Assembly (NCBI GenBank): GCA_030432255.1
Contig: JAUIHS010000023.1
Location: 3,224-67,223, forward strand
Direction of reading: 5' to 3'
DNA length: 64,000 nt
Source: Phycisphaerae bacterium
Lineage (GTDB): Bacteria > Planctomycetota > Phycisphaerae > Phycisphaerales > UBA1924
Shown here: piece by piece, positions 615-59,359 of the stretch
Layout: each line of letters opens with the position of its first letter
Numbering within the stretch: the stretch's first letter is position 1
Notes under the pieces: model-generated
Seen by the model: only the letters and a program-made list of their open reading frames with translations
What the model was told of the DNA's origin: nothing
The model's database searches: none
Position numbers and translations under genes: made by a program

Positions 615-3600
615 ATGCCACACTCAGGAATTGCCCGTCGCGTCCTTTGGCTGTCGGTTGGATTGTGGGTTGTGATCGCCGCGACCCCCGGGGCAGCCGG
701 ACCGCCGCCGGTCCTCTACGTTGACGCCGACCGGCCGGGCGGTGACGGCAGTTCGTGGAGCGAAGCCTTCACTCACCTGCAGGATGCGCTCTCCGTGGTG
801 GCCGGGCCGGCGGAGATCTGGATCGCCGAAGGGACGTACATGCCCAACGGGAGCCGCGTCAATGACGCCGGCTTTCAGGATGTCAGCGGCGGGGTCTATG
901 ACCGTACAGCGACCTTCCTGGTCGCACCCGGGACCACGATCCGCGGCGGTTTTGCTGGCACCGAGGCCGAGCCTGACGATCGCGCCGGCGACCACCTGAC
1001 GATTCTCTCCGGTGCGATGGACAACGCGAGCCTGTTCAGCCGCCGCTCCTACAACGTCGTGCGTGTGGAATCCGCGGCGATCGGGCCTGTCATCCTGGAA
1101 TCGCTGGTGATCGAAAAGGGCAACTCAGAGAGCCCGGCGAGCGAAGGAGACGGCGGCGGCATCAACGTGCGAACCAACGTGCTGCTTGATCTTCGCGACG
1201 TGATCGTGCAGCAATGCCAGGCGCAGATGCGGGGCGCGGGAGTCTGGTCAGCGGGGCGTGTGATCATCAAGCGAAGTCGGTTTGAGGAGAACGAGTCCGG
1301 GGCCGGTGGTGGCGCGATCAACGTGCGCCGTGACCTGTCGGAGGGGAGCCACCTGGTTGTTCAGTGCGAGTTCATCTCCAACGATGCGGGTCAGAATGGC
1401 GGCGCGATTCTCGTCTCCGGCATTCCCGAGGGCCCCGTGCTCATGCAGGTGCAGAACAGCCTGTTCCATGACTGTAGTGCCATCCAGTTCGGTGGTGCCG
1501 TGAGTGGCAACCCCGGCACGGAGGTTCGGCTGCACAACTGCCTGCTGCTCAATAACGAGGCCGGCGTGGGGGGTGCCGTGAGTGTGACCGGCCCGGACAC
1601 CCGAGGACGAGTGCACAACTGCACATTCTCGAGCAACAACGCCATCATGGGCGGGATGGGCGGCGACCTGCACATCGGGTCGGGCAACGAACTTCGGGTC
1701 TTCAACTCACTGTTTGCCTACGACAGTGCCGAGCCAACGACGCTCGCTGAGATCGGCGGCGGTGGTATTCTCGCATTTCGAGATTGCATGACCGACAATC
1801 CGGCGCCGTTTGCCGGGGGTGCCACTCTCGACGGGACGCCGGAGTACCAGTCCCAACTGAGCTTCATCGACGTCGATGGCGCCGACGATATCAGGGGAAC
1901 TCTGGACGACGACCTTCGCCTGTCTCCGGACTCACCGGCCATTGATCGGGGGCACAACTACTGGTATCTCGATGAGGCGTACAGTGACGAGACGCAGACG
2001 ACCGACAATGGACGCGACTTGCTCGATCTCAACGGGAACGGATCGACCGACCGTGAGTATCTGCCCATCGATCTGCAGCAGGGGCTGCGATTTCTTGATG
2101 TCGACACTGTCCCGGACGCCGTGGTGTGTACCGCCGTGGATGACACCGTACCCGTCGGGGATGGTGTTGACACCGAATTCGGAGGCATCCTGCCGTGTAT
2201 CGACCTGGGATGCTACGAGGTTCAATCGTGCATGGACTGCCCGGGATCTCGACGTTGGCTCAACGTGGCGGGTGGCAACTTCGAGGATGCCTTCAACTGG
2301 TTCCCGGCACTGCCCGGTGATCTGAACATCGCCGCTATCGGCCAGAGCGGCGCCGGTGCATACACGATCCAACTCAACTCGTCGCGGGAGAATCTCGCGC
2401 TGAGTGTTGAAGACAATGACGTCACAATCGACCTGGGCCAGAATATCTACCTGCTCAATGCTGTCGTTGAACCCTCCGTGAATGTCACTGGCACGAGTGT
2501 CCCGGGGCCGCACCTCTTTGTCACCAATGGCATGCTGGCCGGGGAGAGCCTGCTCATCGGGGAACTGCCCAAGTCCCGTGGGTCCGTCACCATCGACGGC
2601 GCTCAGACCCTGCTCGACTTCAATCGGAACCTCTCCGTTGGGGTATTCGGCGAGGCGAGCATGGAGATCTGCGACGGCGCTTCCGTCTTCGCGCTCACCG
2701 TCGGGGTCGGCGAGCAGGCCGGGTCCAGCGGTGATCTCGTTGTTTCCGACGGCTCGGAACTGCTCACAACTGACGTTCAGATCGCCGAGGGATCACTCGC
2801 TGTTCAAGGCACCGGCGTCGTGGATGCGACCGTTCTTCCGTCGGGAGACATCACCGTTCTCTCGGGTGGTGTCGTCCGCGGCGATGGCACACTGGTTGGA
2901 GATGTCATCAACTTCGGAAAGGTCGAAGCCGCACTGGGGGCGTCCGGTATCCGCGGCACAGGTGCGCTGACCGTTCTCGGAGACTACTACCAGCCCGGAG
3001 CAATCCCGCAGATTGATTCGATCGGCGGCATCCTGCAATCCGAGGTCTCCGGTGGCACATCGACCGAAGCAACCAGGCTGGCGGTTCAGGGCGATGCAAC
3101 GGTCGCAGGGGGACTGCTGGTGCGCTTCGCCGAGGGCTCGCCCGCCATCGACCCGGCAGAACTCGACGGACTCACGTTCCTGCAGGCAGACGCCGCGACG
3201 GGGCGGTTTGATGTCGCGCTCATGCCCGCCATCGCGCCGGATGCCGGTGGCAATGTCCGGTTCCTGCGCGTGGTTTATCCGAGTGATCCCGGTGCCGCCC
3301 GCGGCACGGGCGAGATCACGCTGACGGTGGAGACGCTTGGAGTTGGTGGCCCCAGTTTGGGCGTCGAGTCCACTGGTGCGCTGAGCCAGCAGCCGGTTGC
3401 CGCGGCGGTCGGCGATGTCGGCCGGTTCACCCCGGGCGGTCCGGACGGTGCGGAGGACCTGGTCGTGATCTACCCGGACGGCACCGGGATTGTGCTGTAC
3501 AACGTCGGCGGCGCCTTTGATGCTCCGGGGAGTGGAACATCCCAGTTCAGCGTGGGCGCCGGAACTGATCCGACGGATGTCGCCGTCGGAGACGTGAATG

Positions 3601-4667
3601 ACGACTCACTCGCGGATGTTGTGATCACGAATCGTGGGAGCGACAACGTCGCGATCCTTCTGAACGATGGAGACGGCCTCTTTCCATCGTTCTACGGTGT
3701 GGGTGTCGGCACGGCGCCGGTGGCGGTTGCGCTGGGAGACCTCGACGGTGATGGGCGCCCGGAGATCCTGACCGCGAATGAGGAGAGCGACGACCTCGCG
3801 GTGGTCTACAACGACGGTGGGGACGACAGCAGTGAATGGCGGGGCGCGACCTTCCACCCGGTCGGCCAGCGTCCCAGCGATGTCGCCCTGGCGGACTTCG
3901 ACACGGACAAGTTCGACGACCCGATTCTCAGCGTCAGAGGCGACGATCGGATCTCGATCTTTACCAATTCGGGGACCGGCACGCTCGGTGCCCGCGTTGA
4001 TCGCACCGTGGGCGATGGTCCATCGCGCCTGATCGTCGAGGATCTCGACGCGGACGGGCGGTCGGACGTGGTCACCATCAATGAAGGCGGTGATGCAGCG
4101 GGTATCCTGCGATCCAACGGTCCGGGCTTCGGCGACTTCGCTCCCGCGGTCGAACAGCCTTTGGCCGGCACACCGCTGTCGCTCGTTGCGGTGGATCTCG
4201 ACGAGGATGCGGATCGCGATCTTGCGATCGTGGTGGACTTCGAGGGCGTCCGTTCGATCGCCTACTACCGCAACGACTACTTCGGGCCCACGGATGACCT
4301 CATCCTGACTGACATCACCGGGGATCCCGGGCTGCCTGATGTCTCCGGTCCCCAGATCGTTCTGCGCTCCGATGTGGACCTGGATGCGCAGGAGGACCTC
4401 GTGGTGATCAACGACGGGAGCGGGGCACGAAGCGCGCACGCTGCGCGGGGCGCAACGCCGGAGCGGGTACGAGTCTTCCTGCCCCTGGGCTGTCCAGGCG
4501 ACGCCGATGGGAGTGGCAGCGTGGACTTCACCGACCTCAATCTTGTCCTCGCAGGCTGGGGAGGCCCCGGCGACGGGGATGTGTTCCCCGTCCCGGGTGG
4601 CGATGGAGTCATCAATTTCGATGATCTCAATGCGGTCCTCGCTCAGTGGGGAGCGTCCTGCAACTGA
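615..4667 (+). CDS. Giant secreted protein: right-handed beta-helix (PbH1/Pmp-like) repeats, FG-GAP/VCBS-like repeats and a C-terminal dockerin-like module
   Basis: Track ORF 393..4667. I moved the start to ATG 615, which has GGAGG 7 nt upstream and gives the signal peptide [29 protein letters not shown]. The N-terminal third has GGAI/GGAV-type beta-helix repeats. The region from about 3400 to 4300 has repeated D-x-D/N-x-D-G-x-x-D(L/V)V segments (for example [30 protein letters not shown] and [26 protein letters not shown]), which are FG-GAP/VCBS-like. The protein ends [24 protein letters not shown]...[22 protein letters not shown]. Confidence 0.8.
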
Positions 4668-54678: not shown

Positions 54679-56076
54679 TCAGGCGAGTGCTTCATAGGTC
54701 GTCAGGCGAGCATCGGTGCGCTTGATGATGTCGCTGACACCCTGCTGGTTGAATCCCTTGTAGCCGTCGTTCCGCTCCAGGTTCTCAAGGTGAGAGCCGA
54801 CGGCGCCCGCCTTCCGGAACTTCTCGGCTTCCTTCTCCGTGATGCGACCGTGCCGGAGCAGGCGGGTGATGCGCTTCTCGGCAACCGCCCACACCTCACC
54901 CTTCGTGAAGGACTGGCGCAGGAAATCGAAGTCGGTGAATGGGTCCATCACGCTGTGTCCGGCCAACTCGAGCGCTTCGGTCAGACGCGCATGGTCGAAC
55001 TGACACTCAAGGTGATGCATGCCCGCCTGGAGCATGCTCTCGCCGTGAAGCCCCGTCCACAGACCCACGGTGCCCAACTCGTCGCGCTCCGGAAGCGGGT
55101 TGTGCGCGAAATCGCCCCCCACCTCGTCCGGCGAGAGATCAACATCGGCGAAGACCACCAGCCCCGTGATCGGCTGCTCCAGGACCTGGGCACCCCAGCC
55201 CGCTTCCTCGCCGGCGTAGAAGCGCTCGCGGCACTTGAACCCGAGTTTCTCCAACAGACTGACCAGGCTTCCGAAGTACTGCCGCGAACAACGGAACGTG
55301 TGGTGGTCGTGGTTCGCCCAGCCAAGGCCGAGTCGATCCTGACGCGCCTTCTGCCAGCGGGCGGACGCATTGCGGCGCTCCCAGAAGTCACGCTCTGCGC
55401 GGAAGAAGAGGTCACAGACCAGGTGCACGCCGGAACGCTCGCCAGTGGCCAACTCATCCAGCGCCGCATCCACCAGCGAGTGCACATGCTCGAATCCCTG
55501 GTCATCCGTCGGCCAGTCGCGCCGGCGACGCCGGAATGACTCGAGGTGCCGGATCGCCGCGATCTCGCGACGCGGATCCGCCTGCATCTCAGCAAAGCCG
55601 AGGTATCCGTGGCGCTCAACGGCAATGAGTTCGGTGTTGTCTCCACGAAATGCCGTCGCGCGGCGCAGTGCAGTCATCGGCTCACCGGAGATGGGCTGAT
55701 CGTTCGGGACGGCCCATGTCGCCAGGAAGTCCGCGACCCAGTCCACCTTGATGCCCACGCGCCGCAGCGGGCCGTCACCGAGTACCACCTGGGGGAGGAT
55801 GGCGCCGAGATGGACATACCGCTGTGATGCACCGGGAACCGGGCGATGGCTGAAGCCGGTATCGATCAACCGCTCGATGGTCTCCTCGGTCTCGGGGACG
55901 CGGATGTAGTCCAGCCAGTCCAGGAACCGGGTGGACGTCTCATCGAGCATCCGCCGGGCCAGGTTCTCCGAGTGCGGGCAACGACGCAGGTACTCATCGA
56001 TGAATTCGTTGATGAGCGTCTGGGCCCGGGGTTGGGGTTCCCAGTGATACTCGGTCGCGGGTGCGCCCGTTGACAT
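54679..56076 (-). CDS. Conserved-looking hypothetical protein (465 aa), possible metal-dependent enzyme
   Basis: The composition is clean and coding-like over the full length. His-rich motifs are WANHDHHTFRC and AGMHHLECQFDH. I can't place it in a family with confidence. Confidence 0.6.
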   Translation of the reverse strand: MSTGAPATEYHWEPQPRAQTLINEFIDEYLRRCPHSENLARRMLDETSTRFLDWLDYIRVPETEETIERLIDTGFSHRPVPGASQRYVHLGAILPQVVLGDGPLRRVGIKVDWVADFLATWAVPNDQPISGEPMTALRRATAFRGDNTELIAVERHGYLGFAEMQADPRREIAAIRHLESFRRRRRDWPTDDQGFEHVHSLVDAALDELATGERSGVHLVCDLFFRAERDFWERRNASARWQKARQDRLGLGWANHDHHTFRCSRQYFGSLVSLLEKLGFKCRERFYAGEEAGWGAQVLEQPITGLVVFADVDLSPDEVGGDFAHNPLPERDELGTVGLWTGLHGESMLQAGMHHLECQFDHARLTEALELAGHSVMDPFTDFDFLRQSFTKGEVWAVAEKRITRLLRHGRITEKEAEKFRKAGAVGSHLENLERNDGYKGFNQQGVSDIIKRTDARLTTYEALA

Positions 56077-57665: not shown

Positions 57666-57926
57666 TCAATAGGGGATCGGCTTGGGGCTCAGGCGGGACG
57701 GGCGATCCGTCATCCAGATGCGACCGAGGTCTTCCCAGAGCATCCGGAAGTTGGTGTCGCGTTGGAGGACGAGAGCGTTGTTGATCTCGAAATCCGTCTG
57801 GCTGAGCGTATCCAGCGCCGGGCTGGGGTCACTGTTGACCGAAGAACTGCAGCCACCAAGGGCAAGCAGGCCGATCAGGCCGGCGGCAGGGAGCATGAAT
57901 CGAGTCGTGGTACGCATGTTTCGCAT
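57666..57926 (-). CDS. Small lipoprotein, function unknown
   Basis: 86 aa. MRNMRTTTRFMLPAAGLIGLLALGGCSSS contains a lipobox. Confidence 0.6.
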   Translation of the reverse strand: MRNMRTTTRFMLPAAGLIGLLALGGCSSSVNSDPSPALDTLSQTDFEINNALVLQRDTNFRMLWEDLGRIWMTDRPSRLSPKPIPY

Positions 57927-58149
57927 GGCAAAAATCCTCTGTTGAGCGAACGGTTGTACCGGCCATCGCCCGCGGCGTCAATCCGGAATCCGGACCATCA
58001 CACCAGACCGAAAATAGCACGAACGACCCGATATGCAGTGGGGTCGCGGCGGGTCAGACGCACAGGTTCGGATCAGGTTCCTTTCATCTTTCGTGATGTC
58101 GCCCAAGCTGCTCGCATCGCGCGGATCCCGCGGGTATGGTGAAGTTGAA

Positions 58150-58348
58150 CAACGGTCGTCTGCTGGTGACTGAGCCACACAAATGTCTCGACCTTTAAGA
58201 CCCTTCGGGAGCCACACCGATATTTTCGGCGATGATCAAGCCTCCACGAGTGGACGATCGGGACCGAAACGGCGGCGCCCACCTAGCTTGATAAGGGTTC
58301 GAGCCATTCGTGATTCGGTCACCAGCAGGCGACCGTCGTTCGCTTTTG
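58150..58348 (+). ncRNA. ssrS: Highly structured ~190-nt RNA, 6S RNA-like (alternatively a cis-acting leader of cysE)
   Basis: A 19-bp closing helix forms between 58152-58170 (acggtcgtctgctggtgac) and 58318-58336 (gtcaccagcaggcgaccgt), with one G-U. It is extended by cacaaatg/cattcgtg and ctcgacc/ggttcgag pairings. Internal hairpins are ccc-ttcg-ggg, ccga-tattt-tcgg and atcaagc...gcttgat. Local GC is lower than in the flanks and there is no credible ORF. Motifs ctgagcc, gatatttt and cacct..aagggttcgag resemble E. coli 6S RNA segments as I recall them. Strand and ends are approximate. Confidence 0.5.
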
Positions 58349-58375
58349 ACCCAGCAACGCCGAGGACAACGCTGA

Positions 58376-59359
58376 ATGACCTGCCCGAGCGATGACACGT
58401 CTGATCATGCTTCCATTGATGCGGAACTCGTCTCCGAGCTCACCGAGTCCATCCTTGCCGAGACGCGAACCCGGCACCTCGGGTGCGAGCACATTCCGAA
58501 TCGCGAAGCCGTCGGTCGACTCATCGATCTGCTTCGCCAGATGGCCTTTCCGGGCTTCTTCGACAGCCGCACGCTGACCCCCCGGAACCTGCCGCTCCAC
58601 GTCCAGGAACTCCTCGCACGCATCTCGATCGCCTCGCAGGAGCAGATCCGCTCCGTGATCCGCTACCTCGCGCACTCCAACGCCCAGACGCCCTGCGACC
58701 TCGTCTCCGGTGAACCGGATGCGGTCGCCGCCCGGATCACCCGCCAGTTCATGGCCCGGCTGCCCGAGATCCGACGCCTCATCGCACTGGATGTCCAGGC
58801 GGCCTTCGACGGGGACCCCGCGGCCATCCATACCGATGAAGTCGTCTTCTGCTACCCCGGTCTCGATGCCATCTTCGCGCATCGCATCGCCCATGAACTC
58901 ACGCGCCTGCACGTGCCGCTGCTCCCTCGACTCATCCAGGAACTCGCCCACAACGCCACGGGTATCGATATCCACCCGGGCGCCACCATCGGCGAATCTT
59001 TCTTCATCGATCACGGCACCGGCGTCGTGATCGGGGAGACGACCGAGATCGGTGACCATTGCCGCATCTACCAGGGCGTGACGCTCGGTGCCAAGTCCTT
59101 CCAGCGCGATGAGACGGGACGGCTGGTTCGCGGCGTGAAGCGACATCCCACGATCGGCGACCGGGTGACGATCTACGCTGGCGCGGTCATTCTCGGGGGT
59201 GACACCATCATCGGCGATGACTGCGTCATCAACGGTTCCGTCTTCCTGACGCGATCAGTACCACCGGGGCACATCGTTCGCCAGAAGAGCCCGGAACTCG
59301 TCATGCGCAGCAACCCGATGAACCGGGAGCGCAACAGCGTGGTCGACGCCGGGGGGTAG
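58376..59359 (+). CDS. cysE: Serine O-acetyltransferase (long form)
   Basis: 327 aa. Motifs: DVQAAFDGDPAA, VVFCYPGLDAIFAHRIAHEL, and the hexapeptide-repeat core GIDIHPGATIGESFFIDHGTGVVIGETTEIGDHCRIYQGVTLG. Confidence 0.9.
   Translation: MTCPSDDTSDHASIDAELVSELTESILAETRTRHLGCEHIPNREAVGRLIDLLRQMAFPGFFDSRTLTPRNLPLHVQELLARISIASQEQIRSVIRYLAHSNAQTPCDLVSGEPDAVAARITRQFMARLPEIRRLIALDVQAAFDGDPAAIHTDEVVFCYPGLDAIFAHRIAHELTRLHVPLLPRLIQELAHNATGIDIHPGATIGESFFIDHGTGVVIGETTEIGDHCRIYQGVTLGAKSFQRDETGRLVRGVKRHPTIGDRVTIYAGAVILGGDTIIGDDCVINGSVFLTRSVPPGHIVRQKSPELVMRSNPMNRERNSVVDAGG

Follow-up and report, generated by a model that had tools for sequence, protein, structure and literature searches.

The lower-GC spacer in front of the cysE-like gene of this Phycisphaerales bacterium raises the question of whether it encodes an RNA of its own and, if so, whether that RNA is a free regulator or a leader that controls the gene behind it. 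An earlier note on this DNA had read the spacer as a 6S-like RNA, with a cis-regulatory cysE leader as its fallback. 6S RNA is widespread; by mimicking an open promoter this small RNA restrains RNA polymerase. It is a stable RNA that builds up to high levels in stationary phase, and it usually comes from a single-copy, independent gene that has its own promoter and is conserved across a lineage. Our analysis indicates that positions 58147..58347, on the forward strand of the window (the whole 64-kb stretch of DNA that was analysed), are almost certainly the single 6S RNA (ssrS) gene of this bacterium, in a slightly divergent form. The 6S-like reading is supported by an end-to-end match of the forward strand to the Rfam family RF00013 (6S/SsrS) and by covariation among orthologues that follows the 6S architecture, and the leader fallback is not.

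The comparison with Rfam, which the earlier note had proposed as a check, returned RF00013 as the sole significant family (E 8e-8). In a cmscan of 57900-58500 under an E-value threshold, the match spans 58152-58337 of the forward strand at 44.9 bits (E 8.1e-8) and covers model positions 1-187, that is, its full length; the next matches have E-values of 2.6 and 9.2, and no riboswitch family matches anywhere in 57900-58500. The RF00013 gathering score is 46.4 bits, so the window copy falls 1.5 bits short of it, and for this reason a default Rfam scan of the whole 64-kb window at gathering thresholds reports zero families.

A plain DNA search of 60 relatives found only core fragments, in a few genomes, so that a covariance model was needed. 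Three of these loci are full-length RF00013 matches (58.8, 45.0 and 34.5 bits), and they were combined with the window sequence into a four-sequence clade covariance model, R1, which scores the window at 141 bits on the forward strand versus 21.8 bits on the reverse strand and yields a single match in each of 35 genomes out of 61 relatives from the same order. When 20 R1 loci were rescanned with Rfam, 11 matched RF00013, five of these above the cut-off. Seven of the 14 Rfam-matched copies in relatives exceed the gathering score (46.6-58.8 bits), which places the homologous group inside the 6S family; the Phycisphaerales 6S group straddles the RF00013 threshold. A second R1 match in the window's own genome (21 bits, on another contig) was rejected, as it lies inside ORFs and has no 6S match; this leaves one 6S copy in the assembled genome (about 6% of the genome is unassembled). 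The window RNA thus has the usual character of a 6S gene, being single-copy, conserved across its lineage and preceded by a candidate promoter of its own (below). One relative, G005, has two clade-model matches, of which C75:13625-13833 is full-length and C30:30206-30306 is core-only; the pair may reflect either a second 6S gene or redundancy in the assembly (contamination 1%).

The RNA folds as expected for a 6S RNA. The minimum-free-energy structure of a 211-nt stretch is a rod at -99.4 kcal/mol (z = -7.2; none of 200 dinucleotide shuffles folds as well), and the reverse strand folds nearly equally (z -6.8), so folding alone has no power to assign the strand. Within about 180-200 nt the rod has a closing stem, a large central bubble and an apical stem with a terminal loop; in order, these are a 19-bp closing stem, a small internal loop, a 7-bp helix, the central bubble (13 versus 15 nt) and the apical stem. 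The closing stem, in which ACGGTCGTCTGCTGGTGAC (58152..58170) pairs with GTCACCAGCAGGCGACCGT (58318..58336) through 19 bp with a single G-U (U58159-G58329), is present exactly as the earlier note described it, and in the window fold it is extended by G58147-C58341, A58148-U58340, A58149-U58339 and C58150-G58338. On the closing-stem side of the bubble, CUCGACC (58187..58193) pairs with GGUUCGAG (58296..58303, U58298 bulged); the register of this helix in the window was set by eye, since the MAFFT alignment is off by one base at this point, and the Rfam alignment likewise has UCGA-CC/GGUUCGAG as the helix on this side of the bubble. The 5' strand of the bubble, UUUAAGACCCUUC (58194..58206), is unpaired in both the Rfam consensus alignment and the alifold consensus, and the 3' strand, ACCUAGCUUGAUAAG (58281..58295), starts within a near-invariant CCCACCU motif (C138-C142 are invariant or nearly so). 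The apical stem, internal and terminal parts together, occupies 58207..58280; it starts with GGGAGCC/GGCGCCC in the Rfam alignment and continues through UUUCGGC/G..CCGAAA and GAUC/GAUC to a terminal CCUC/GAG.G. Among orthologues the terminal stem (window 58241-58252, alignment columns 137-150) alternates between CCUCC...GAGUGG and CCGCC...GAGCGG, so that its middle bases form a U-U mismatch in some sequences and a G-C pair in others; only 29 of 45 sequences fit the register (U-A) that alifold assigns to this stem. The spacer contains no credible ORF, as had been claimed: the 60-80-aa frames there overlap the RNA, and we judge them non-coding because orthologues carry 1-2-nt indels inside them, which a coding region would not tolerate.

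Covariation among orthologues, the other comparison proposed at the outset, is strong in the helices around the bubble and in the apical stem. We aligned 45 distinct orthologues (the core plus 46 nt on each side) with MAFFT, which is blind to structure, and counted pairs on the RNAalifold consensus. Standard pairs fill 90.7% of cells, versus 26-49% when the 3' partners are slid by 1-3 columns; 18 of 32 pairs have changed on both sides (8-16 in the slid controls), compensatory cells number 170 (24-66 in the controls), and the covariation score of 0.351 was reached by none of 500 column shuffles. Compensatory changes in the orthologue group thus back these helices, as is expected of a 6S RNA. 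In helix 1 (58187-58193/58296-58303), 93.6% of cells pair and six of the nine pairs show compensatory changes; swaps in this bubble-flanking helix include CTCGGGCC/GGTCCGAG and CCGAGACC/GGTCCTCGG. Helices 2-5, which make up the apical stem (58207..58280), contribute 12 pairs with compensatory changes. The helices also fix the strand, because they contain many G-U and U-G pairs, which on the complementary strand would read as A-C mismatches. In the distal closing stem column-wise covariation could not be counted in the MAFFT or Infernal alignments, as both are out of register there, and this stem was assessed instead by folding each sequence against shuffled and non-cognate flanks. A 5' flank folds more stably with its cognate 3' flank than with shuffled versions of it (median z -4.5; z < -2 for 37 of the 47 orthologues), and when all 47 3' flanks are compared as partners, the cognate one comes out best for 22 of the 5' flanks; the long closing stem is retained despite its unalignable sequence.

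Some details of the original reading fared less well against these alignments. Of the three 6S motifs named in the earlier note, caccu..ggguucgag was in the correct register of the Rfam alignment, and the other two were not: cugagcc (58170-58176) aligns with the loop after the closing stem and not with the consensus CuGAgCC, whose counterpart in the window is UCGA-CC at about 58187-58193, and gauauuuu sits in an apical-stem insertion and not in the 5' bubble. The CCC-UUCG-GGG hairpin at 58201-58209 does exist and is possible in 96% of orthologues, but it has no covariation support because its bases are nearly invariant; its UUCG loop occurs only in the window genome, and most relatives have CCCCAAGGG. 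The 7-bp complement atcaagc/gcttgat (58235-58241/58286-58292) is likewise present as described, but it is not conserved as a helix; 48.9% of cells pair in orthologues, no better than in shuffles, and we reject it as a part of the RNA.

Both ends of the RNA were placed by comparison among orthologues, because consensus scans of the window found no full -35/-10 promoter and no terminator at the 6S locus. A -10-like hexamer, TATGGT (58135..58140, forward strand), with a weak -35 region, predicts a start at about 58146-58149. Defined as TAnnnT with at least four of six matches to TATAAT, 42-85 nt upstream of the core, such a box is present in 41 of 47 orthologues, versus 1-3 of 47 in control windows further upstream and 8 on the opposite strand. 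Directly after the extended closing stem lies a U-tract, UUUU (58344..58347), which is probably a weak intrinsic termination point; a T-tract of at least 4, 25-110 nt past the core, occurs in 30 of 47 orthologues (1 and 7 of 47 in controls). In about 20 relatives a separate GC hairpin with a T-tract stands between the RNA and the next gene, and the window lacks one. These candidate promoter and terminator signals are specific to the forward strand, and together they would delimit a transcript of about 190-200 nt between the TATGGT box and the U-tract; we infer the 5' end from the former and the 3' end from the latter.

The gene downstream (58376..59359, forward strand), a neighbour and not part of the RNA, encodes a hexapeptide-repeat acyltransferase with a Pfam Hexapep match (1.5e-10), which agrees with the name cysE. 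Its orthologues are 48-65% identical across Phycisphaerae, and the nearest cysE loci are in Phycisphaerales, Phycisphaeraceae and Phycisphaerae MAGs (Planctomycetota). A 6S RNA lies directly upstream of cysE on the same strand at 11 of 25 cysE loci of relatives and at 18 of 80 cysE loci in the genome collection, all 18 from Phycisphaerae or unclassified Planctomycetota; conversely, cysE is downstream at 13 of 30 6S loci of the same order. The order 6S then cysE is a recurrent Phycisphaerae arrangement, and the earlier comparison with ssrS-ygfA (an RNA directly 5' of a same-strand gene) is apt as a description of the locus.

It is this recurrent adjacency, together with the direct 5' position on the same strand and the 29 nt without a separate promoter box that run from the U-tract to the ATG, that speaks for a cis-acting leader or riboswitch-like element controlling the cysE-like gene. 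We nevertheless consider a leader very unlikely. Many relatives have the RNA away from cysE, and in G044 the two are on different contigs; the 14 remaining cysE loci have no 6S copy nearby even with filters off, and in other Planctomycetota 30 6S loci were examined, none of which lies within 1.5 kb of cysE. An RNA that is often but not always beside cysE rules out an obligate cis-leader. Moreover, in about 20 orthologues a full hairpin-plus-T terminator precedes cysE and is followed by a fresh -10-like box, so that linkage is neither constant nor free of terminator-bounded RNA, and the spacer matches the 6S model end to end and no riboswitch family. In many relatives (L083, L060, L062, L063, L069, L038, L061, L093 and others) a -10-like TAnnnT box (TACGAT, TAGGAT, TATGAT and so on) stands beyond the terminator, 6-9 nt ahead of the cysE start codon (ATG) and roughly 100-130 nt downstream of the 6S core, which suggests separate, possibly leaderless cysE mRNAs in Phycisphaerales.

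Given a free 6S RNA, the adjacency may still matter for the expression of its neighbour. The window has neither a -10-like box before 58376 nor a terminator hairpin between the 6S RNA and the cysE-like gene, so that co-transcription of the two is possible in this genome, and the gene is probably expressed, at least in part, by read-through from the 6S promoter. A fuller model, which we regard as possible but doubtful, is that part of the Phycisphaerales has a conserved 6S-cysE pair from which the hairpin and the cysE box have been lost here, with cysE transcribed mainly by read-through from a strong, growth-phase-regulated 6S promoter and with the closing stem and U4 acting as an attenuating terminator. 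If true, cysteine synthesis would be tied to the 6S expression programme, and an operon like ssrS-ygfA would have arisen independently with a different partner gene.

A different possibility is that the locus encodes a conserved rod-shaped small RNA, derived from or resembling 6S, that has lost its action on RNA polymerase and serves a different function. The sub-threshold RF00013 score could be taken in this sense, as could patchy detection within the family: a better model, R2, matched 16 of 41 genomes of the same family and did not raise the hit rate, but absence in the R2 search is unreliable because only 59 of about 2000-4000 initial candidates per genome were scored. Absences in whole-genome RF00013 searches are also unreliable, since such a search of the window's own assembly missed the site (E 8e-8 by cmscan), which the initial filter had dropped. 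Published work might seem to point the same way; Thermogutta, a planctomycete, yielded no 6S homologue according to PMC5673643, which also cites the screen of Wehner et al. 2014 as having found no 6S in two Planctomycetia genomes, and we found no paper linking 6S RNA to Phycisphaerae beyond PMC5673643. RF00013 matches are nonetheless common across the phylum (present in 90 of the 201 genomes sampled, and above the cut-off in 57), and the best-conserved parts of the RNA are the bubble-flanking helices, the size of the bubble and the CCCACCU motif, all key to the 6S mechanism. An RNA that has left RNA polymerase behind thus has very little probability. Least credible of all is a chance inverted repeat or mobile-element remnant in the lower-GC spacer, which the near-equal folding of both strands might suggest, and which can safely be set aside given an element that is present once in the genome (the one further match, a weak one, lies inside ORFs), conserved across the order with compensatory changes and flanked by strand-specific promoter and terminator signals.

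As a 6S RNA the window transcript would be expected to work as its relatives do. In E. coli and B. subtilis, 6S RNA uses its bubble to bind the housekeeping holoenzyme and is freed on synthesis of a short product RNA (pRNA). By analogy, the bubble would imitate the melted region of an open promoter, so the RNA should, as judged from its family, occupy the active site of housekeeping-sigma RNA polymerase, and the bound RNA would lower transcription when growth stops. When growth resumes, the polymerase would transcribe pRNA from the 5' bubble strand; this synthesis would disrupt the flanking helix, make the RNA refold and thereby set the enzyme free. From the E. coli and B. subtilis RNAs, 58194-58206 is presumed to be the pRNA start and template region, and a template strand running from there into 58187-58193 is plausible. 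Once the flanking helix is open, GCUUGA (58286-58291) could pair with UCGAGC (58299-58304), and the near-invariant GGG at 58207-58209 can have alternative partners, CCC at 58201-58203 upstream or CCC at 58278-58280 downstream. As far as base complementarity can tell, the GCUUGA/UCGAGC pairing and the alternative GGG pairing both fit the predicted refolding step.

The identification fills an annotation gap, placing a global regulator of RNA polymerase in a 64-kb window that has no RNA gene at the Rfam gathering threshold. Many Planctomycetota genomes have RF00013 matches, and the Phycisphaerales copies hover around the cut-off; adjacency to cysE could act as a synteny anchor by which sub-threshold copies in the order might be recovered. 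In other respects it is an ordinary housekeeping RNA, a further member of a well-known family, in which only the lineage-specific pairing with cysE, and the operon that the two genes may form here, is mildly new. Two nearby reverse-strand genes may be mentioned: upstream of the RNA, 57666-57926 is an 86-aa ORF with a lipoprotein-type signal (…LIGLLALGGCSS…) and no Pfam match, and 54679-56076 encodes a 465-aa protein with no Pfam family at E <= 0.001.

The closest parallel among characterised systems is the E. coli-type 6S RNA of RF00013. The window RNA shares its size (about 190 nt), its closing stem, large bubble and apical stem, the conserved G-C-rich helices that flank the bubble and the full-length covariance-model match; it also lies directly 5' of a same-strand protein gene, just as E. 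coli ssrS lies directly before ygfA. It differs in an extra 4-nt insertion in the apical stem, in one base fewer in the bubble-flanking helix, in a downstream gene for a cysE-like acetyltransferase instead of 5-formyl-THF cyclo-ligase, and in a 3' end that is apparently defined by the closing stem and U-tract and not by processing. With the 6S RNAs of its Phycisphaerales relatives (for example those of G044, 58.8 bits, and L041, 57.3 bits) it shares the helices, the position of the -10 box and a common core, GCTCGAACC ... GGGAGC ... CAAGCCTCC ... GAGTGGAAG ... CCCACCT ... GGGGTTCGAGC, as well as the cysE neighbour found upstream-paired with 6S at between about a quarter and a half of the cysE loci surveyed; it is without the separate terminator hairpin that about 20 relatives have and the -10-like box that many of them carry before cysE, and its 5' bubble has CCCUUCGGG in place of CCCCAAGGG. 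The 6S RNAs of lactic acid bacteria described in PMC8414754 have a closing stem, a 5' central bulge in which pRNA starts, a hairpin opposite the bulge and an apical stem, and their family-level synteny allowed neighbouring genes to be used to recover sub-threshold 6S copies; they belong to another phylum, and their neighbours are rarA and uspA, whereas here the neighbour is cysE.
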